From Escherichia coli (lineage in GTDB: Bacteria > Pseudomonadota > Gammaproteobacteria > Enterobacterales > Enterobacteriaceae): a DNA stretch of 64,000 bases. The translations under genes and the position numbers were made by a program. Positions within the stretch are counted from its first letter, which is position 1. Each line of letters begins with the position of its first letter. Shown here piece after piece: positions 21,064 to 33,872 of the stretch. The notes beneath the pieces were generated by a model. It ran no database searches and was not told the DNA's origin. It saw only the letters and a program-made list of their open reading frames with translations. The stretch lies in the NCBI RefSeq assembly GCF_002854065.1, contig NZ_CP024147.1; one strand, written 5' to 3'.

Positions 21064-23598
21064 ATGGCCGGGAATGACCGCGAGCCAATTGGACGCAAAG
21101 GGAAACCGACGCGTCCGGTCAAACAAAAGGTAAGCCGTCGTCGTTACGAAGATGACGATGATTACGACGATTATGATGACTATGAGGATGAAGAACCGAT
21201 GCCGCGCAAAGGTAAGGGCAAAGGCAAAGGGCGTAAGCCTCGTGGCAAACGCGGCTGGCTATGGCTGCTGTTAAAACTGGCTATCGTTTTTGCCGTGCTG
21301 ATCGCCATTTACGGCGTTTATCTCGATCAAAAAATTCGTAGCCGTATTGATGGCAAGGTCTGGCAACTGCCTGCGGCAGTTTATGGTCGAATGGTCAACC
21401 TTGAGCCAGACATGACCATCAGCAAGAACGAGATGGTGAAGCTGCTGGAGGCAACACAGTATCGTCAGGTGTCGAAAATGACCCGTCCTGGCGAATTTAC
21501 TGTGCAGGCTAACAGCATTGAGATGATCCGCCGTCCGTTTGATTTCCCGGACAGCAAAGAAGGGCAGGTGCGTGCGCGTCTGACCTTTGATGGCGATCAT
21601 CTGGCGACCATCGTCAATATGGAGAACAACCGTCAGTTCGGTTTCTTCCGTCTTGATCCGCGCCTGATCACCATGATCTCCTCACCAAACGGTGAGCAAC
21701 GTCTGTTTGTGCCGCGCAGTGGTTTCCCGGATTTGCTGGTGGATACTTTGCTGGCGACAGAAGACCGTCATTTTTACGAGCATGATGGGATCAGTCTCTA
21801 CTCCATCGGACGTGCGGTGCTGGCAAACCTGACAGCCGGACGCACGGTGCAGGGGGCGAGTACGCTGACGCAACAGCTGGTGAAAAACCTGTTCCTCTCC
21901 AGCGAGCGCTCTTATTGGCGTAAAGCGAATGAAGCCTACATGGCGCTGATCATGGACGCGCGTTACAGCAAAGACCGTATTCTTGAGCTGTATATGAACG
22001 AGGTGTATCTCGGTCAGAGCGGCGACAACGAAATCCGCGGCTTCCCGCTGGCGAGCTTGTATTACTTTGGTCGCCCGGTAGAAGAATTGAGCCTCGATCA
22101 GCAGGCGCTGTTAGTCGGTATGGTGAAAGGAGCGTCCATCTACAACCCGTGGCGTAACCCGAAACTGGCGCTGGAGCGACGTAATCTGGTACTGCGTCTG
22201 CTGCAACAGCAACAGATTATTGATCAAGAACTCTATGACATGTTGAGTGCGCGTCCGCTGGGTGTTCAGCCGCGCGGTGGGGTGATCTCTCCTCAGCCAG
22301 CCTTTATGCAACTGGTGCGTCAGGAGCTTCAGGCTAAATTAGGCGATAAGGTAAAAGATCTCTCCGGCGTGAAGATCTTCACTACCTTTGACTCGGTGGC
22401 CCAGGACGCGGCAGAAAAAGCCGCCGTGGAAGGCATTCCTGCACTGAAGAAACAGCGTAAGTTGAGCGATCTGGAAACCGCGATTGTGGTCGTCGACCGC
22501 TTTAGTGGTGAAGTTCGTGCGATGGTCGGAGGTTCTGAGCCGCAGTTTGCGGGCTACAACCGTGCGATGCAGGCGCGGCGTTCGATTGGTTCCCTTGCAA
22601 AACCAGCGACTTATCTGACGGCTTTAAGCCAGCCGAAAATCTATCGTCTGAATACGTGGATTGCGGATGCGCCAATCGCGCTACGTCAGCCGAATGGCCA
22701 GGTCTGGTCACCGCAGAACGATGACCGTCGTTATAGCGAAAGCGGCAGAGTGATGCTGGTGGATGCGTTGACCCGTTCGATGAACGTGCCGACGGTAAAT
22801 CTGGGGATGGCGCTGGGGCTGCCTACGGTTACGGATACCTGGATTAAACTGGGCGTACCGAAAGATCAGTTGCATCCGGTTCCGGCAATGCTGCTGGGGG
22901 CGTTGAACTTAACGCCAATCGAAGTGGCGCAGGCATTCCAGACCATCGCCAGCGGTGGTAACCGTGCACCGCTTTCTGCGCTGCGTTCGGTAATCGCGGA
23001 AGATGGTAAGGTGCTGTATCAGAGCTTCCCGCAGGCAGAACGCGCTGTTCCGGCACAGGCGGCGTATCTGACACTATGGACCATGCAGCAGGTGGTACAA
23101 CGTGGTACGGGTCGTCAGCTTGGGGCGAAATACCCGAACCTGCATCTGGCAGGGAAAACAGGGACTACCAACAATAACGTAGATACATGGTTTGCGGGCA
23201 TTGACGGCAGCACGGTGACCATCACCTGGGTCGGCCGTGATAACAACCAGCCGACCAAACTGTATGGTGCCAGCGGGGCAATGTCGATTTATCAGCGTTA
23301 TCTGGCTAACCAGACGCCAACGCCGCTGAATCTTGTTCCGCCAGAAGATATTGCAGATATGGGCGTGGACTACGACGGCAACTTTGTTTGCAGCGGTGGC
23401 ATGCGTGTCTTGCCGGTCTGGACCAGCGATCCGCAATCGCTGTGCCAGCAGAGTGAGATGCAGCAGCAGCCGTCAGGCAATCCGTTTGATCAGTCTTCTC
23501 AGCCGCAGCAACAGCCGCAACAGCAACCTGCTCAGCAAGAGCAGAAAGACAGCGACGGTGTAGCCGGTTGGATTAAAGATATGTTTGGTAGTAATTAA
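21064..23598 (+). CDS. mrcB: Penicillin-binding protein 1B (bifunctional glycosyltransferase/transpeptidase)
   Basis: Track ORF 21049..23598; start taken at [12 protein letters not shown] (844 aa); N-terminal acidic/basic tail, transmembrane segment, transglycosylase and transpeptidase domains. Confidence 0.95.
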
Positions 23599-23613
23599 CG
23601 TCTAAACGTGACA

Positions 23614-23645
23614 TACCGGATGGCGAGTTGCCATCCGGTAAAATA
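23614..23645 (+). terminator. Hairpin downstream of mrcB (putative terminator)
   Basis: Perfect palindrome TACCGGATGGC-gagtt-GCCATCCGGTA at 23614-23640, followed by A-rich sequence. Confidence 0.5.
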
Positions 23646-23761
23646 ACATCCCACCTAAAGTATTAACCCTTTCTTTTCATCTGGTTGTTTATTAACCCTT
23701 CAGGAACGCTCAGATTGCGTACCGCTTGCGAACCCGCCAGCGTTTCGAATATTATCTTACC

Positions 23762-23782
23762 TTTATAATAATCATTCTCGTT
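23762..23782 (+). promoter_or_regulatory. Putative Fur box in the fhuA promoter region
   Basis: TTATAATAATCATTCTC resembles the Fur consensus GATAATGATAATCATTATC; about 40 bp upstream of the fhuA ATG. Confidence 0.55.
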
Positions 23783-23817
23783 TACGTTATCATTCACTTT
23801 ACATCAGAGATATACCA

Positions 23818-26061
23818 ATGGCGCGTTCCAAAACTGCTCAGCCAAAACACTCACTGCGTAAAATCGCAGTTGTAGTAGCCACAGCGGTTAGCGGCATGTC
23901 TGTTTATGCACAGGCAGCGGTTGAACCGAAAGAAGACACTATCACCGTTACCGCTGCACCTGCGCCGCAAGAAAGCGCATGGGGGCCTGCTGCAACTATT
24001 GCGGCGCGACAGTCAGCTACCGGCACTAAAACCGATACGCCGATTCAAAAAGTGCCACAGTCTATTTCTGTTGTGACCGCTGAAGAGATGGCGCTGCATC
24101 AGCCTAAGTCGGTGAAAGAAGCGCTTAGCTACACGCCGGGTGTCTCTGTTGGTACGCGTGGCGCATCCAACACCTATGACCACCTGATCATTCGCGGTTT
24201 TGCGGCAGAAGGCCAAAGCCAGAATAACTATCTGAATGGCCTGAAGTTGCAGGGCAACTTCTATAACGATGCGGTCATTGATCCGTATATGCTGGAACGC
24301 GCTGAAATTATGCGTGGCCCGGTTTCCGTGCTTTACGGTAAAAGCAGTCCTGGCGGCCTGTTGAATATGGTCAGCAAGCGTCCGACCACCGAACCGCTGA
24401 AAGAAGTTCAGTTTAAAGCCGGTACTGACAGCCTGTTCCAGACTGGTTTTGACTTTAGCGATGCACTGGATGATGACGGCGTTTACTCTTATCGCCTGAC
24501 CGGCCTTGCGCGTTCTGCCAATGCCCAGCAGAAAGGGTCAGAAGAGCAGCGTTATGCTATTGCACCGGCGTTCACTTGGCGTCCGGATGATAAAACCAAT
24601 TTCACCTTCCTTTCTTACTTCCAGAACGAGCCGGAAACCGGTTATTACGGCTGGTTGCCGAAAGAGGGAACCGTTGAGCCGCTGCCGAACGGTAAGCGTC
24701 TGCCGACAGACTTTAATGAAGGGGCGAAGAACAACACCTATTCACGTAATGAGAAGATGGTGGGCTACAGCTTCGATCACGAATTTAACGACACCTTTAC
24801 TGTGCGTCAGAACCTGCGCTTTGCTGAAAACAAAACCTCGCAAAACAGCGTTTATGGTTACGGCGTCTGCTCCGATCCGGCGAATGCTTACAGCAAACAG
24901 TGTGCGGCATTAGCGCCAGCGGATAAAGGCCATTATCTGGCACGTAAATACGTCGTTGATGATGAGAAGCTGCAAAACTTCTCTGTTGATACCCAGTTGC
25001 AGAGCAAGTTTGCCACTGGCGATATCGACCACACCCTGCTGACCGGTGTCGACTTTATGCGTATGCGTAATGACATCAACGCCTGGTTTGGTTACGACGA
25101 CTCTGTGCCACTGCTCAATCTGTACAATCCGGTGAATACCGATTTCGACTTCAATGCCAAAGATCCGGCAAACTCCGGCCCTTACCGCATTCTGAATAAA
25201 CAGAAACAAACGGGCGTTTATGTTCAGGATCAGGCGCAGTGGGATAAAGTGCTGGTCACCCTGGGCGGTCGTTATGACTGGGCAGATCAAGAATCTCTTA
25301 ACCGCGTTGCCGGGACGACCGATAAACGTGATGACAAACAGTTTACCTGGCGTGGTGGTGTTAACTACCTGTTTGATAATGGCGTAACACCTTACTTCAG
25401 CTATAGCGAATCGTTTGAACCTTCTTCGCAAGTTGGGAAGGATGGTAATATTTTCGCACCGTCTAAAGGTAAGCAGTATGAAGTCGGCGTGAAATATGTA
25501 CCGGAAGATCGTCCGATTGTAGTTACTGGTGCCGTGTATAATCTCACTAAAACCAACAACCTGATGGCGGACCCTGAGGGTTCCTTCTTCTCGGTTGAAG
25601 GTGGCGAGATCCGCGCACGTGGCGTAGAAATCGAAGCGAAAGCGGCGCTGTCGGCGAGTGTTAACGTAGTCGGTTCTTATACTTACACCGATGCGGAATA
25701 CACCACCGATACTACCTATAAAGGCAATACGCCGGCACAGGTGCCAAAACACATGGCTTCGCTGTGGGCTGACTATACCTTCTTTGACGGTCCGCTTTCA
25801 GGTCTGACGCTGGGCACCGGTGGTCGTTATACTGGCTCCAGCTATGGTGATCCGGCTAACTCCTTTAAAGTGGGAAGTTATACGGTCGTGGATGCGTTAG
25901 TGCGTTATGATCTGGCGCGAGTCGGCATGGCGGGCTCCAACGTGGCGCTGCATGTTAACAACCTGTTCGATCGTGAATACGTCGCCAGCTGCTTTAACAC
26001 TTATGGCTGCTTCTGGGGCGCAGAACGTCAGGTCGTTGCAACCGCAACCTTCCGTTTCTAA
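23818..26061 (+). CDS. fhuA: Ferrichrome outer-membrane transporter (TonB-dependent receptor)
   Basis: 747-aa ORF with signal peptide, TonB-box region and terminal aromatic residue (...ATATFRF). Confidence 0.95.
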   Translation: MARSKTAQPKHSLRKIAVVVATAVSGMSVYAQAAVEPKEDTITVTAAPAPQESAWGPAATIAARQSATGTKTDTPIQKVPQSISVVTAEEMALHQPKSVKEALSYTPGVSVGTRGASNTYDHLIIRGFAAEGQSQNNYLNGLKLQGNFYNDAVIDPYMLERAEIMRGPVSVLYGKSSPGGLLNMVSKRPTTEPLKEVQFKAGTDSLFQTGFDFSDALDDDGVYSYRLTGLARSANAQQKGSEEQRYAIAPAFTWRPDDKTNFTFLSYFQNEPETGYYGWLPKEGTVEPLPNGKRLPTDFNEGAKNNTYSRNEKMVGYSFDHEFNDTFTVRQNLRFAENKTSQNSVYGYGVCSDPANAYSKQCAALAPADKGHYLARKYVVDDEKLQNFSVDTQLQSKFATGDIDHTLLTGVDFMRMRNDINAWFGYDDSVPLLNLYNPVNTDFDFNAKDPANSGPYRILNKQKQTGVYVQDQAQWDKVLVTLGGRYDWADQESLNRVAGTTDKRDDKQFTWRGGVNYLFDNGVTPYFSYSESFEPSSQVGKDGNIFAPSKGKQYEVGVKYVPEDRPIVVTGAVYNLTKTNNLMADPEGSFFSVEGGEIRARGVEIEAKAALSASVNVVGSYTYTDAEYTTDTTYKGNTPAQVPKHMASLWADYTFFDGPLSGLTLGTGGRYTGSSYGDPANSFKVGSYTVVDALVRYDLARVGMAGSNVALHVNNLFDREYVASCFNTYGCFWGAERQVVATATFRF

Positions 26062-26111
26062 TTTCTCTTTTGGGGCACGGATTTCCGTGCCCATTTCACA
26101 AGTTGGCTGTT

Positions 26112-26909
26112 ATGCAGGAATACACGAATCATTCCGATACCACTTTTGCACTGCGTAATATCTCCTTTCGTGTGCCCGGGCGCACGCTTTTGCATCCGCT
26201 GTCGTTAACCTTTCCTGCTGGGAAAGTGACCGGTCTGATTGGTCACAACGGTTCTGGTAAATCCACTCTGCTCAAAATGCTTGGCCGTCATCAGCCTCCG
26301 TCAGAAGGGGAGATTCTTCTTGATGCCCAGCCGCTGGAAAACTGGAGCAGCAAAGCGTTCGCCCGCAAAGTGGCTTATTTGCCGCAGCAGCTTCCTCCGG
26401 CAGAAGGGATGACCGTGCGTGAACTGGTGGCGATTGGTCGTTACCCGTGGCATGGCGCGCTGGGGCGCTTTGGGGCGGCAGATCGCGAAAAAGTCGAGGA
26501 AGCTATCTCGCTGGTTGGCTTAAAACCGCTGGCGCATCGGCTGGTCGATAGCCTCTCTGGCGGCGAACGTCAGCGGGCGTGGATCGCCATGCTGGTGGCG
26601 CAGGATAGCCGTTGTCTGTTGCTCGACGAGCCAACCTCGGCGCTGGATATCGCTCACCAGGTTGATGTGCTGGCACTGGTGCATCGTTTAAGTCAGGAAC
26701 GTGGCCTGACGGTCATTGCCGTGCTGCACGATATCAATATGGCTGCGCGTTACTGTGATTATCTGGTCGCCCTGCGCGGCGGTGAAATGATTGCTCAGGG
26801 AACGCCTGCGGAAATTATGCGCGGCGAAACCCTCGAAATGATTTATGGCATCCCGATGGGTATTTTGCCGCATCCGGCGGGTGCTGCACCTGTGAGTTTT
26901 GTTTATTGA
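26112..26909 (+). CDS. fhuC: Iron(III)-hydroxamate ABC transporter ATP-binding protein
   Basis: Track ORF 26070..26909; start at MQEYTNHSD (265 aa); Walker A GHNGSGKST and ABC signature LSGGERQR. Confidence 0.95.
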   Translation: MQEYTNHSDTTFALRNISFRVPGRTLLHPLSLTFPAGKVTGLIGHNGSGKSTLLKMLGRHQPPSEGEILLDAQPLENWSSKAFARKVAYLPQQLPPAEGMTVRELVAIGRYPWHGALGRFGAADREKVEEAISLVGLKPLAHRLVDSLSGGERQRAWIAMLVAQDSRCLLLDEPTSALDIAHQVDVLALVHRLSQERGLTVIAVLHDINMAARYCDYLVALRGGEMIAQGTPAEIMRGETLEMIYGIPMGILPHPAGAAPVSFVY

Positions 26910-27799
26910 TGAGCGGCTTACCTCTTATTTCGCGCCGTCGACTGTTAACGGCGATGGCGCTTTCTCCGTTGTTATGGCAGATGAATACCGCCCACGCGGC
27001 GGCTATTGATCCCAATCGTATTGTGGCGCTGGAGTGGTTGCCGGTGGAATTACTGCTGGCGCTCGGCATCGTGCCTTACGGCGTGGCGGACACCATCAAC
27101 TATCGCCTGTGGGTTAGCGAACCGCCATTGCCGGACTCAGTGATTGACGTTGGTTTGCGTACAGAACCTAACCTTGAACTGCTGACCGAAATGAAACCGT
27201 CGTTTATGGTCTGGTCGGCAGGATATGGCCCTTCACCAGAAATGCTGGCTCGTATTGCGCCGGGGCGTGGTTTTAACTTCAGCGACGGCAAACAGCCGCT
27301 GGCGATGGCGCGTAAATCGCTGACGGAAATGGCGGATTTACTTAACCTGCAAAGCGCAGCAGAAACGCATTTAGCGCAATATGAAGACTTTATCCGCAGC
27401 ATGAAACCCCGCTTTGTGAAGCGTGGTGCACGCCCGTTATTGCTGACGACGCTTATCGATCCGCGCCATATGTTGGTCTTCGGTCCAAACAGCTTGTTCC
27501 AGGAAATTCTTGATGAGTACGGTATCCCAAATGCCTGGCAAGGGGAAACCAACTTCTGGGGCAGCACCGCCGTCAGTATCGATCGTCTGGCGGCGTATAA
27601 AGATGTTGATGTGCTCTGTTTTGATCATGACAACAGCAAAGACATGGATGCGCTAATGGCAACGCCGCTGTGGCAGGCCATGCCGTTTGTCCGCGCCGGA
27701 CGCTTTCAGCGCGTACCTGCAGTCTGGTTTTATGGTGCGACGCTCTCGGCAATGCACTTTGTGCGCGTTCTGGATAACGCCATCGGAGGTAAAGCGTGA
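26909..27799 (+). CDS. fhuD: Iron(III)-hydroxamate periplasmic binding protein
   Basis: Track ORF 26906..27799; start at MSGLPLISRRRLL (Tat-like signal); ATGA overlap with the fhuC stop. Confidence 0.93.
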   Translation: MSGLPLISRRRLLTAMALSPLLWQMNTAHAAAIDPNRIVALEWLPVELLLALGIVPYGVADTINYRLWVSEPPLPDSVIDVGLRTEPNLELLTEMKPSFMVWSAGYGPSPEMLARIAPGRGFNFSDGKQPLAMARKSLTEMADLLNLQSAAETHLAQYEDFIRSMKPRFVKRGARPLLLTTLIDPRHMLVFGPNSLFQEILDEYGIPNAWQGETNFWGSTAVSIDRLAAYKDVDVLCFDHDNSKDMDALMATPLWQAMPFVRAGRFQRVPAVWFYGATLSAMHFVRVLDNAIGGKA

Positions 27800-29778
27800 G
27801 TAAACGAATTGCGCTTTTCCCGGCGTTATTGCTGGCGCTGTTAGTGATTGTCGCTACGGCGCTCACCTGGATGAACTTCTCGCAGGCGCTGCCGCGTAGC
27901 CAGTGGGCGCAGGCTGCCTGGTCGCCGGATATTGACGTCATCGAGCAGATGATTTTTCACTACAGCTTGTTGCCGCGTCTGGCGATTTCGCTGCTGGTGG
28001 GCGCGGGCCTGGGGCTGGTGGGCGTGCTGTTTCAGCAAGTGCTGCGTAACCCGCTGGCGGAACCGACGACACTTGGCGTTGCTACAGGCGCGCAACTGGG
28101 GATTACCGTCACTACGCTCTGGGCGATCCCAGGGGCGATGGCGAGTCAGTTTGCTGCGCTGGCGGGCGCTTGCGTTGTTGGCTTAATCGTCTTTGGCGTC
28201 GCGTGGGGGAAACGGCTTTCGCCGGTAACGCTGATCCTCGCGGGGCTGGTAGTGAGCCTTTATTGTGGGGCAATCAATCAGTTACTGGTTATCTTCCACC
28301 ATGACCAACTGCAAAGCATGTTCCTGTGGAGCACCGGAACGCTGACGCAAACCGACTGGGGCGGTGTTGAGCGTTTATGGCCGCAGTTGCTGGGCGGTGT
28401 GATGCTGACGTTGCTGCTACTTCGTCCGTTAACCCTGATGGGGCTTGATGATGGCGTGGCGCGCAATCTCGGGCTGGCCTTGTCGCTCGCGCGTCTGGCG
28501 GCGCTGTCGCTGGCGATAGTCATCAGTGCGCTGCTGGTGAACGCAGTGGGGATTATCGGCTTTATCGGGTTGTTCGCGCCGCTGCTGGCAAAAATGCTGG
28601 GGGCGCGGCGTCTGCTGCCGCGACTGATGCTGGCGTCGTTGATTGGTGCGCTGATCCTCTGGCTTTCCGATCAAATCATCCTCTGGCTGACTCGTGTGTG
28701 GATGGAAGTGTCCACCGGTTCGGTCACTGCGTTGATCGGTGCGCCGCTGCTACTGTGGCTGTTGCCGCGTTTACGCAGCATTAGCGCGCCGGATATGAAG
28801 GTCAACGATCGTGTCGCGGCTGAACGCCAACATGTGCTGGCGTTTGCCCTCGCGGGCGGCGTGCTGCTGTTGATGGCTGTGGTGGTGGCGCTGTCGTTTG
28901 GTCGTGATGCGCACGGCTGGACGTGGGCGAGCGGGGCGTTGCTCGATGATTTAATGCCCTGGCGCTGGCCGCGAATTATGGCGGCGCTATTTGCGGGCGT
29001 CATGCTGGCGGTGGCGGGCTGTATTATTCAGCGACTGACCGGCAACCCGATGGCAAGCCCGGAAGTGCTGGGGATTAGCTCCGGCGCAGCGTTTGGCGTG
29101 GTACTGATGCTGTTTCTGGTACCGGGTAATGCTTTTGGCTGGCTGTTACCCGCGGGAAGTATCGGTGCGGCGGTGACGCTGTTGATTATTATGATCGCCG
29201 CCGGGCGCGGTGGATTTTCCCCACACCGTATGTTACTGGCGGGGATGGCGTTAAGTACCGCATTCACCATGCTTTTGATGATGTTGCAGGCGAGCGGTGA
29301 CCCGCGAATGGCGCAAGTGCTGACCTGGATTTCCGGTTCGACCTACAACGCGACCGATGCGCAGGTCTGGCGTACCGGAATTGTGATGGTGATTTTGCTG
29401 GCGATTACCCCGCTGTACCGCCGCTGGCTGACCATTTTACCGCTGGGTGGTGATACCGCCCGAGCCGTAGGAATGGCGCTGACGCCGACGCGAATTGCGC
29501 TGCTGCTGTTAGCGGCTTGCCTGACGGCGACCGCGACGATGACTATTGGACCGTTGAGTTTTGTTGGTTTAATGGCACCGCATATTGCGCGGATGATGGG
29601 TTTTCGACGGACGATGCCACACATCGTAATTTCGGCGCTGGTGGGTGGTTTACTGCTGGTATTCGCTGACTGGTGTGGGCGGATGGTGCTGTTTCCATTC
29701 CAGATCCCGGCGGGGCTGCTGTCGACCTTTATCGGAGCGCCATATTTTATCTATTTGCTGAGAAAGCAGAGCCGTTAA
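27796..29778 (+). CDS. fhuB: Iron(III)-hydroxamate ABC transporter permease (fused double permease)
   Basis: 660-aa polytopic membrane protein with internally duplicated permease halves; overlaps the fhuD stop. Confidence 0.95.
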   Translation: MSKRIALFPALLLALLVIVATALTWMNFSQALPRSQWAQAAWSPDIDVIEQMIFHYSLLPRLAISLLVGAGLGLVGVLFQQVLRNPLAEPTTLGVATGAQLGITVTTLWAIPGAMASQFAALAGACVVGLIVFGVAWGKRLSPVTLILAGLVVSLYCGAINQLLVIFHHDQLQSMFLWSTGTLTQTDWGGVERLWPQLLGGVMLTLLLLRPLTLMGLDDGVARNLGLALSLARLAALSLAIVISALLVNAVGIIGFIGLFAPLLAKMLGARRLLPRLMLASLIGALILWLSDQIILWLTRVWMEVSTGSVTALIGAPLLLWLLPRLRSISAPDMKVNDRVAAERQHVLAFALAGGVLLLMAVVVALSFGRDAHGWTWASGALLDDLMPWRWPRIMAALFAGVMLAVAGCIIQRLTGNPMASPEVLGISSGAAFGVVLMLFLVPGNAFGWLLPAGSIGAAVTLLIIMIAAGRGGFSPHRMLLAGMALSTAFTMLLMMLQASGDPRMAQVLTWISGSTYNATDAQVWRTGIVMVILLAITPLYRRWLTILPLGGDTARAVGMALTPTRIALLLLAACLTATATMTIGPLSFVGLMAPHIARMMGFRRTMPHIVISALVGGLLLVFADWCGRMVLFPFQIPAGLLSTFIGAPYFIYLLRKQSR

Positions 29779-29784
29779 TAGAAT

Positions 29785-29805
29785 GCCTCGCCCGGTGGGC
29801 GAGGC
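29785..29805. terminator. Putative bidirectional terminator hairpin between fhuB and hemL
   Basis: Perfect inverted repeat GCCTCGCCC-ggt-GGGCGAGGC between convergent genes. Confidence 0.55.
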
Positions 29806-29812
29806 AAAATTA

Positions 29813-31093
29813 TCACAACTTCGCAAATACCCGACGTGCAGCATCGATGGTGTTATTGATATCTTCCCTGCTGTGCGCCACAGACATAAAGCCCGCTTCA
29901 AACGCTGACGGTGCCAGGTAAACACCTTCATCCAGCATCATATGGAAGAAACGCTTAAAGCGCTCGACGTCACAGGCCATCACATCCTGATAGCACGTCA
30001 CGGACTCGGCGTCGGTAAAGAAAATACCGAACATGCCGCCAACGTGGTTTACCACCAGCGGAATTCCGGCTTCTTCTGCCGCTTCCAGCAGACCTTCTGC
30101 CAGACGTGTTGTCAGCTCATCCAGCGTTTCGTGAACGCCCGGCTGCGCGACTTCATTCAGACAGGCGAAACCGGCTGCCATCGCAATCGGGTTACCGGAA
30201 AGCGTACCCGCCTGATAGACCGGACCCGTCGGGGCCAGCGCATCCATTACATCACGACGACCACCGAATGCGCCTACCGGCATTCCACCGCCGATGATTT
30301 TTCCGAGGCAGGTTAAATCTGGCACTACGCCGTAATAATCCTGTGCGCCAGCTAGCGCTACGCGGAAACCGGTCATCACTTCATCGATGATCAGCAACGC
30401 GCCAAATTCGTCGCACAGCGCGCGCAGACCTGGCAGGAAGTCTGGCAGCGGTGGAACACAGTTCATATTGCCTGCCACCGGCTCGACGATAATACAGGCA
30501 ATCTCTTGCGGGTATTGCTCAAACGCGGCGCGTACAGAAGCCAGATCGTTATAAGTACAGGTTAAGGTATGTTTGGCGAAATCTGCCGGAACGCCCGGCG
30601 AGTTTGGCTGACCTAACGTGAGTGCGCCAGAACCGGCTTTCACCAGCAGGCAGTCAGCGTGACCGTGGTAGCATCCTTCAAATTTAATAATTTTGTCGCG
30701 ACCGGTAAAACCACGGGCCAGGCGGATGGCGCTCATTGTCGCTTCAGTGCCGGAGTTCACCATGCGCACCATATCCATGGTCGGGACCAGTTCGGTCACC
30801 AGTTGCGCCATTTTCACTTCCATTTCGGTTGGTGCACCAAAGCTTAAACCACGCTCGGCGGCTTCAATCACGGCATTGCGGATCGCCGGATGGTTATGGC
30901 CCAGCACCATCGGCCCCCAGGAACCGACATAATCGATATAGGCTTTGCCATCAACATCGTACAGATAAGCGCCGTCCGCTTTTTCGATAAACAGTGGAGT
31001 GCCGCCCACGCCAGTAAAGGCGCGAACAGGGGAGTTCACACCGCCAGGGATCAGCTCGCGCGCTGCGCTGTAAAGATTTTCAGACTTACTCAT
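29813..31093 (-). CDS. hemL: Glutamate-1-semialdehyde 2,1-aminomutase
   Basis: 426-aa ORF recognised as HemL (class III aminotransferase). Confidence 0.95.
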
Positions 31094-31299
31094 GGAGGGT
31101 TCCTGATTCGTAGAAAAAGTGAATGGCTGCTATTCTATGTTATTCATAACAAGTTAAATACTCGTCAAACATCAGGCTGCTTGTACTGGTGCAATCCTGA
31201 TTTCTTAGAGTATAAAAGTTTTGTGCATTTGAAACATTACGCTTTGCAAAGGATTTTCATGGAACGTGCGAGTAAAATGCCGTCATCTTATTTGTATGA

Positions 31300-32739
<1,440 letters not shown>

Positions 32740-32820
32740 ACGAAATACCAGGGTATTAGATAATGGCGATTATTATTGGGTTAGAATTTGCCCAATTGCC
32801 GATGTCGTTTGGAGCAAAAT

Positions 32821-33165
32821 ATGAGTGATGACGTAGCACTGCCGCTGGAGTTTACCGACGCAGCAGCCAACAAAGTTAAAAGCCTGATCGCTGACGAAGA
32901 TAACCCGAATCTGAAATTACGCGTGTATATCACCGGTGGCGGTTGCAGCGGCTTCCAGTATGGTTTCACCTTTGATGATCAGGTGAACGAAGGCGATATG
33001 ACCATCGAAAAACAGGGCGTTGGCCTGGTGGTTGATCCGATGAGCCTGCAATATCTGGTCGGCGGTTCCGTTGACTATACCGAAGGACTGGAAGGTTCTC
33101 GTTTCATCGTGACCAACCCGAACGCGAAAAGCACCTGCGGTTGCGGTTCTTCCTTTAGTATCTAA
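32821..33165 (+). CDS. erpA: Iron-sulfur cluster insertion protein ErpA (A-type carrier)
   Basis: Track ORF 32788..33165; start at [11 protein letters not shown] (114 aa); C-terminal CGCGSSF motif. Confidence 0.93.
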
Positions 33166-33211
33166 TCTGTTGTTCATGTGCCGGATAAATTATCCGGCAC
33201 ATCTTCTCTCT

Positions 33212-33835
33212 TCAACGCCCATTCTCATCCAGCGCAAACGTCGGTAGCTTAAGATGCCAACGAATAGCCGCCAGCCGAATCAATAGCGTCACGACCATGC
33301 CCATCATACTGGCTGTTTCCAGTGGTACGGAAAATGTGTAATAAGCCGTAGCGTGGACAATACCGCCGATAATACAGGCAGTTGCGTAGATTTCTGTACG
33401 TAAAATCATGGGGATTTCGCGGGCCAGAACATCACGAATGATCCCGCCGCCAACGCCAGTAATGACGCCCATACAAACCGCGATTAACGGACCGGCTTCC
33501 GCATTAAAGGCTTTATTCACGCCAATGCCGACAAACACCGCCAGACCAACGGCGTCCAGCACCGGCAACATCCATTTTGGTAAGCGTCTTGGCTGGCGCA
33601 CCAGCACGATGGTCAGCATGCTGGTTACCATTGCAACGACCAGATCGGTGGGATCTTTCACCCAAAATACCGGGCCGTGATCCAGCGCCATGTCGCGAAT
33701 TGTTCCGCCGCCTACTGCGGTAACCACGCCCAATACCAGAACACCAAAAGGGTCCATACGCAATTTTCCGGCTAACAAAACGCCGGAGATGGCAAATACC
33801 GCTGTGCCGACTATATCCAGCCAATAGACGAGCAT
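33212..33835 (-). CDS. yadS: UPF0126 inner-membrane protein YadS
   Basis: 207-aa hydrophobic ORF recognised as YadS. Confidence 0.88.
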   Translation of the reverse strand: MLVYWLDIVGTAVFAISGVLLAGKLRMDPFGVLVLGVVTAVGGGTIRDMALDHGPVFWVKDPTDLVVAMVTSMLTIVLVRQPRRLPKWMLPVLDAVGLAVFVGIGVNKAFNAEAGPLIAVCMGVITGVGGGIIRDVLAREIPMILRTEIYATACIIGGIVHATAYYTFSVPLETASMMGMVVTLLIRLAAIRWHLKLPTFALDENGR

Positions 33836-33872
33836 TGTTCAATCCCCACTGAGCACCTAAAAAGGTCAGGCG

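Follow-up and report, generated by a model that had tools for sequence, protein, structure and literature searches.

Short intergenic spacers in an Escherichia coli yadE-dnaE segment as probable unoccupied, ancestral-type alleles of sites that carry palindromic repeats in K-12

The 64,000-nucleotide stretch of Escherichia coli DNA analysed here (the window) has shorter spacers than K-12 at fhuB-hemL, hrpB-mrcB, rpsB-tsf and pyrH-frr, and these four are best explained as unoccupied intergenic alleles of sites that in K-12 carry a BIME, a Box C-like unit, an ERIC/IRU element and an RSA-like element, respectively, the short form being ancestral rather than a product of deletion at the three sites with outgroup data (fhuB-hemL, rpsB-tsf and pyrH-frr). 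We put the probability of this reading at about 0.88. Each site would hold a simple hairpin in the window and, in K-12, a palindromic non-coding repeat inside that hairpin or in its place, and both states would segregate in E. coli, reshuffled by recombination. The mobility of REPs is attributed to RAYT transposases (PMC2817692), and palindromic repeats inserting into small palindromes have been noted in other species (PMC3733652, PMC2229807).

The window runs from yadE to dnaE on the E. coli chromosome and corresponds to K-12 coordinates ~145,254-208,768, as judged from its ORF layout and BLAST against MG1655, which with its NC_000913.3 annotation served as the K-12 reference; window spacers were measured from ORF coordinates. 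The closest complete genome is that of CUWW06, a wastewater isolate from Thailand, with 100% identity over 18.5 kb and 4 mismatches in 38.8 kb. In the window an IS2 of 1,331 bp (8525..9855), flanked by a 5-bp target duplication, disrupts htrE, which encodes the yad-fimbrial usher, and in CUWW06 an IS2 lies in the same gene ~1.5 kb away, so that the sister strains have two different IS2 positions. The rpnC-panC spacer (2588..2960) measures 373 bp vs 73 bp in K-12 and carries a degenerate second copy (~80% identical) of the 3′ end of rpnC. Two structured RNAs are found as expected for E. coli, the HtrA 5′ UTR thermometer (RF02700, 37055..37100, 77 bits) upstream of degP and t44 RNA (RF00127, 45257..45343) upstream of rpsB.

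A sequence-only reading of this DNA had stated that three spacers are shorter than in K-12, and pairwise alignment against K-12 bore this out, as the spacer lengths differ at all three. The fhuB-hemL spacer (29779..29812) is 34 bp here vs 157 bp in K-12 (difference 123 bp) and, as had been said, is essentially one hairpin. The spacers of rpsB-tsf (46097..46230, plus strand; 134 bp here vs 257 bp in K-12) and pyrH-frr (47955..48103, plus strand; 149 bp here vs 291 bp in K-12) are shorter by 123 and 142 bp, close to the 120-140 bp given in that reading. The accompanying statement that the other gene-to-gene distances agree holds for nearly all of them but not for two, which were the only other length differences in an indel scan (threshold 3 bp) of window positions 13,600-64,000, downstream of the variable yad fimbrial region: the hrpB-mrcB spacer, which that reading overlooked and which falls 64 bp short of the K-12 length, and yaeI, which is absent (~714 bp). 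The latter gene, 813 bp in K-12, is missing between yaeH and dapD, where 128 bp unrelated to K-12 (40457..40584) take the place of ~714 bp of K-12 DNA in the window, and this arrangement is common to CUWW06, R14 and E2348/69. The cdaR-yaeH spacer measures 88 bp in both the window and K-12 but 53 bp in R14 and E2348/69, a further small intergenic indel that segregates in E. coli.

The same reading had taken the pattern to fit REP/BIME-type repeats in the reference. The K-12-only DNA does consist of small dispersed intergenic repeats, and at fhuB-hemL it is assignable to a BIME, but in the alignment of the K-12-only segments that of rpsB-tsf is of the ERIC/IRU type and that of pyrH-frr is RSA-like and not a REP, and hence the DNA at these three spacers represents three different repeat families. 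No REP was detected anywhere in the 64-kb window by blastn-short with the K-12 Y and Z1 REPs, and a search for further dispersed repeats in positions 13,600..64,000 returned only chance matches inside coding sequence. The names of the repeats are not readable from the annotation, since the NC_000913.3 record used has no repeat_region features, and Rfam, which holds no family for these repeats, gave no match beyond t44, the htrA thermometer and CssrA, the last of these in K-12.

The fhuB-hemL spacer lies, stop to stop, between the convergent genes fhuB (27796..29778, plus strand), the last gene of fhuACDB, and hemL (29813..31093, minus strand), both supported by the ORF list and the annotation of K-12 and CUWW06, and it represents a BIME-free allele of the ancestral type. 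Its G+C-rich hairpin TGCCTCGCCC-GGT-GGGCGAGGCA (29784..29806) has a 10-bp stem and a 3-nt loop, sits 5-6 nt from both stop codons (5 nt after that of fhuB), and has fold energies of -20.6 and -25.9 kcal/mol (z = -4.1 and -5.4). On the minus strand, that of hemL, 8 of the 10 pairs are G-C, 5 of the next 8 bases are T, and a terminator scan detects the hairpin; on the plus strand, that of fhuB, the stem is present, the tail AAAATTAT has no U-tract and the scan is silent. The hairpin resembles a terminator of hemL and is terminator-like on that strand alone. Across 10 species, seven of the ten stem pairs keep pairing by means of changes on both sides. As a 3′-end hairpin it may serve both convergent transcripts, being terminator-like for hemL and stabilising or blocking for fhuB. 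The hairpin occurs once in the window, the spacer together with its flanking DNA matches a median of 1 place per genome, which is not the high copy number of a REP or BIME, and the spacer shows neither a GTAG/CTAC tag nor a blastn-short match to the K-12 Y or Z1 REPs.

In the alignment, the K-12 fhuB-hemL spacer and the window's 33 bp share nothing, which indicates replacement and not a clean insertion. The K-12 spacer holds GCCCGATGCGACGCTGGCGCGTCTTATCGGGCCTAC and, in inverted orientation, GTAGGTCGGATAAGGCGTTCACGCCGCATCCGAC, two REPs with GTAG/CTAC ends that fold as separate hairpins, as well as a degenerate third upstream, and it matches at least 40 places per genome. We take the two REPs to be of the Z1-like and Y-like types. 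By its sequence the K-12-only DNA is a BIME, and its REP hairpins would have replaced the 34-bp hairpin in the 3′-end role.

For comparison with other species, the region around cdaR, 10 kb on each side, was collected from 80 species of Enterobacteriaceae and the three spacers were measured. At fhuB-hemL, 21 of 64 species have a spacer of 33-62 bp with one G+C-rich hairpin. Homologous hairpin spacers of 33-38 bp occur in Citrobacter, Kosakonia, Intestinirhabdus and an Enterobacter sp.; the window's GCCTCGCC...GGCGAGGC is also found in three Citrobacter species and Intestinirhabdus, and the hairpin of Kosakonia and the Enterobacter sp. reads GCCTCTCC...GGAGAGGC. REPs are present at this site in E. 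albertii, E. whittamii, Salmonella and several Citrobacter, the spacer of E. whittamii containing about ten of them in 440 bp. Box C-like units, 85-98% identical to the K-12 hrpB-mrcB unit, fill the spacer in Enterobacter, Leclercia, Lelliottia, Buttiauxella, Pluralibacter and others.

At rpsB-tsf the window has an ERIC-free allele, in which the 10 bp ACGCTCGTAC (46103..46112, plus strand) align in place of a 133-bp ERIC-containing segment of K-12 and form the apex of a weak hairpin (-10.1 kcal/mol, z = -1.7) just 3′ of the rpsB stop codons. The K-12-only segment can be identified as ERIC/IRU from several features: positions 190654-190697 match, at 38 of 44 positions, the core built from the ERIC1R and ERIC2 primers (sequences from PMC5938721), the 133 bp form an end-to-end palindrome (-70.1 kcal/mol, z = -8.0), and members of the family are detectable at a median of 9 places per genome. 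It is the only ERIC within 143-210 kb of K-12. In the window a search for the ERIC core that allowed 5 mismatches in each primer, or 11 of 44 in the two joined, gave no match, and the multi-copy intergenic palindrome of ~127 bp that defines an ERIC is seen in K-12 only, 10 unrelated bp standing there in the window. The attenuator/terminator hairpin GGGGGCCTGCATATGGCCCCC followed by TTTTT (46148..46173, plus strand), located before tsf, is intact and identical to that of K-12, and monocistronic rpsB transcripts are known to end at the attenuator before tsf (PMC2834685). Since this attenuator is untouched, the operon layout is preserved. The rpsB 3′ UTR would be 123 nt shorter here, which might slightly alter mRNA stability; ERICs in Yersinia have been reported to affect mRNA stability (reviewed in PMC2229807). 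Rfam CssrA (RF02798) scores 136 bits on the rpsB-tsf spacer of K-12 (L002 12685..12794), the 5′ half of the match being within the ERIC, and 53.6 bits, below the gathering score, in the window (46054..46168). The original paper placed cssrA between map and rpsB, which disagrees with the site of the Rfam model match.

The rpsB-tsf spacer measures 117-155 bp in 42 of 53 species, and the empty-site motif of the window is kept as GGCACGCTCGTTAGAGCC in Citrobacter, Kluyvera and others, with a related hairpin in Siccibacter. The ERIC of the K-12 type occurs with identical junctions in two other Escherichia species, Salmonella arizonae, one C. amalonaticus, Pseudocitrobacter and Intestinirhabdus. Different TA positions distinguish at least three independent ERIC insertions in this spacer, namely that of the K-12 type, that of C. 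youngae and Citrobacter On2M, and that of Buttiauxella. The aligner had paired GGCACGCTCG of the window with the ERIC-internal GGCAAGCTCG, as if the window form were an internally deleted ERIC. This was rejected, because the empty-site motif is conserved in genera that are free of the ERIC and because a true deletion derivative keeps the ERIC termini. An internally deleted ERIC of this kind is found in Pseudocitrobacter (locus L010), where both K-12-type termini are retained; the window has neither.

The window allele at pyrH-frr is without an RSA-like element of ~145 bp and contains the hairpin GGGTAAGATTCCGCG...CGCGGGGGATCTTACCC (47975..48013, plus strand; -25.5 kcal/mol, z = -5.3). The K-12 element sits in the 3′ arm of this hairpin, where in the alignment its 145 bp replace the ATC at window positions 48005..48007. 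It is a long imperfect palindrome (z = -3.6) with imperfect terminal inverted repeats of ~17 bp, and has a median of 5 places per genome, with 8 as the maximum. RSA in the K-12 GenBank record is 150/151 bp in length with 6 copies (PMC5172473 Table 1), and the element is a putative RSA, as judged from size and copy number rather than from a consensus comparison. The 'RU-3' of Delihas was considered as a candidate for the element and dropped, since its printed sequence is a REP pair, i.e., a BIME. Further copies, which share ~140 bp and the terminal inverted repeats with the pyrH-frr element, lie in the spacers between the pheM leader and pheS (L087 1201..1321) and between qseG and qseE (L088 1201..1318), that is, inside regulatory or operon-internal spacers. 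Among 45 species the pyrH-frr spacer is 139-175 bp in 33, and the RSA-like element occupies it only in Escherichia. An uninterrupted hairpin, GGTAAGATTCCGCG...CGCGGG..CTTACCC, is found in C. amalonaticus (L025) and Intestinirhabdus (L077), and ERICs occupy the site in Citrobacter, Kluyvera, Klebsiella indica, Raoultella and others.

The fourth case, hrpB-mrcB, consists in the window of a single hairpin with the core CTCCCTCTCCC-TGT-GGGAGAGGG (20933..20973, plus strand; from alignment and fold). K-12 has an extra 64-bp G+C-rich palindrome in the loop of this hairpin, with a fold energy of -74.2 vs -26.5 kcal/mol here. The unit is a putative Box C, and blastn detects its family at a median of 6 places per genome, with 14 as the maximum; the name Box C is suggested by length, copy number and sequence rather than by a consensus comparison. 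Box C repeats are 56 bp in length with 33 copies in K-12 (PMC5172473 Table 1). Taking the DNA between the direct repeats CCCTCTCCCT..GGGAGAGGG out of K-12 yields the short form, and a 64-bp deletion between these repeats and an empty site are equally possible.

Taken over all four sites, the hrpB-mrcB geometry is one of the points that could be cited for the opposite polarity, namely that the occupied, K-12-like state is ancestral and that the window lineage lost its repeats by deletion. Replication slippage readily excises palindromic elements, and the occupied state is the majority at rpsB-tsf and pyrH-frr and is also present in other Escherichia species (L004, L005). However, the short alleles hold sequences, i.e., the 33-bp hairpin spacer, ACGCTCGTAC and the ATC, that are absent from K-12 and are conserved at the orthologous sites in distant genera, including Citrobacter, Kluyvera, Kosakonia, Intestinirhabdus and Siccibacter. 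Deletion cannot recreate such sequences, and a real deletion derivative of the ERIC keeps the ERIC termini, as seen in Pseudocitrobacter. Hence loss by deletion is refuted at the three sites with outgroup data, and as a general explanation it is quite improbable. The short alleles at fhuB-hemL, rpsB-tsf and pyrH-frr are, as far as sequence comparison reveals, ancestral-type empty sites. Occupied alleles are also found in other species and are old too, and 'ancestral' therefore holds at the level of the family and not necessarily for the last common ancestor of E. coli.

The population data come from 5,426 complete E. coli genomes. At fhuB-hemL the short allele is the majority (3,713 genomes) and the BIME-carrying K-12 state the minority (1,701). 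The ERIC is present at rpsB-tsf in 4,095 genomes and the RSA-like element at pyrH-frr in 3,560, leaving, as the complements of these counts, ~1,330 (~25%) and ~1,870 (~34%) short alleles, and the K-12 form of hrpB-mrcB is found in ~3,400-3,900. Short alleles that recur in thousands of independent complete genomes, and also in CUWW06 and R14, are not assembly artefacts. That the short spacers arose in sequencing or assembly, by collapse of palindromic repeats, or by genome engineering can be given next to no weight: long palindromes can indeed vanish in cloning or assembly and nothing points to it specifically here, but it is refuted by the identity of the short alleles, and the conservation of their replacement sequence, across thousands of genomes that were finished independently and come from many sources, and the genomes nearest to the window are those of natural isolates from wastewater and human sources.

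The three empty alleles occur together in ~12 of 60 rank-spread genomes, i.e., about a fifth, as judged from span lengths, and their joint presence was confirmed directly in R14, which is ~98.1% identical to the window. E2348/69 combines the fhuB-hemL hairpin with the ERIC and the RSA-like element. Between rpsB and frr, 2 SNPs separate the window from K-12 and 9 separate it from R14, yet it has its empty alleles in common with R14. With so few SNPs to K-12 but the empty alleles of R14, occupancy is decoupled from the flanking haplotype, as expected under recombination.

This decoupling would also be seen if the sites turned over by repeated site-specific re-insertion together with exchange between species, the hairpins being hot spots of integration. 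The independent ERIC insertions at different TA positions of rpsB-tsf, of which there are at least three, are in line with such turnover, as are the ERICs that other genera have at pyrH-frr, where E. coli has the RSA-like element, and the alternation of REPs, Box C-like units or a plain hairpin at fhuB-hemL among 64 species. Against it, the junctions of the K-12-type ERIC are identical in all carrier genera, which fits a single event followed by inheritance or recombination better than re-insertion, and we regard such turnover as possible and rather unlikely. Old empty sites that became occupied in some lineages and were then reshuffled by recombination remain the preferred reading. All four empty sites fold as hairpins, that of rpsB-tsf weakly, each K-12 element of the stretch sits in, on or in place of its hairpin, and in different genera the spacers have been colonised independently by ERIC, REP, Box C-like and RSA-like repeats. 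A more speculative proposal, which we hold to be less probable still than repeated re-insertion, is that pre-existing 3′-end hairpins are preferred landing sites for several unrelated families of palindromic repeats.

The polymorphism is ordinary, already-known presence/absence variation of dispersed intergenic repeats between strains; the window itself has nothing unusual and its spacers are the plain state. The differences in spacer length from K-12 in this region trace to known repeats in the reference and not to an oddity of the strain, and intergenic lengths taken from K-12 serve poorly as a yardstick for other E. coli. Differences in ERIC-PCR and REP-PCR banding arise from such sites, and a feature modelled on K-12-like sequence may lack half of its extent in many strains, as with Rfam CssrA and its 5′ half in the ERIC. 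Two mildly interesting points are left. One is the repeated colonisation, in different genera, of the same hairpin-bearing spacers by different palindromic families. The other is that the ERIC allele with identical junctions coexists with the empty allele in several genera, both within E. coli and within C. amalonaticus, which, if true, would mean a very long-lived presence/absence polymorphism or intergeneric exchange of a ribosomal-operon spacer.

The known repeat systems that these sites resemble find their counterpart in the K-12 allele rather than in that of the window. The K-12 fhuB-hemL spacer has the properties of an E. coli BIME, with two imperfect palindromes of ~35 bp in inverted orientation, GTAG/CTAC ends, high copy number and a location after the 3′ ends of convergent genes, while the window has a unique, non-repeated hairpin without a REP (for REPs, BIMEs and RAYT transposases in general, see PMC2817692 and PMC3733652). 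The K-12 rpsB-tsf segment agrees with ERIC/IRU/RU-1, the 127-bp MITE-like element of enterobacteria, in its core match, its end-to-end palindrome and its position in co-transcribed intergenic DNA, and the copies of C. youngae and Buttiauxella have TA-flanked ends as described (PMC2229807); the K-12-type copy is different in replacing 10-11 bp of the old hairpin with no clean TA duplication, and the element is absent from the window. The pyrH-frr element of K-12 is like RSA in being intergenic and palindromic, with ~145-150 bp and ~5-8 copies per genome, a likeness of length and copy number and not of consensus, and it too is absent from the window. The putative Box C unit of hrpB-mrcB is, like Box C, a G+C-rich CCCTCTCCC/GGGAGAGGG palindrome dispersed through the genome, although the K-12 unit is 64 bp and the window keeps a single hairpin with a 9-bp stem. 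Finally, the fhuB-hemL hairpin of the window is similar to the intrinsic terminators of convergent genes in being a G+C-rich stem-loop 5-6 nt from the stops, with a T-rich minus-strand tail and compensatory changes in its stem, and differs from them in that the fhuB strand has no U-tract; a terminator function is predicted for hemL.
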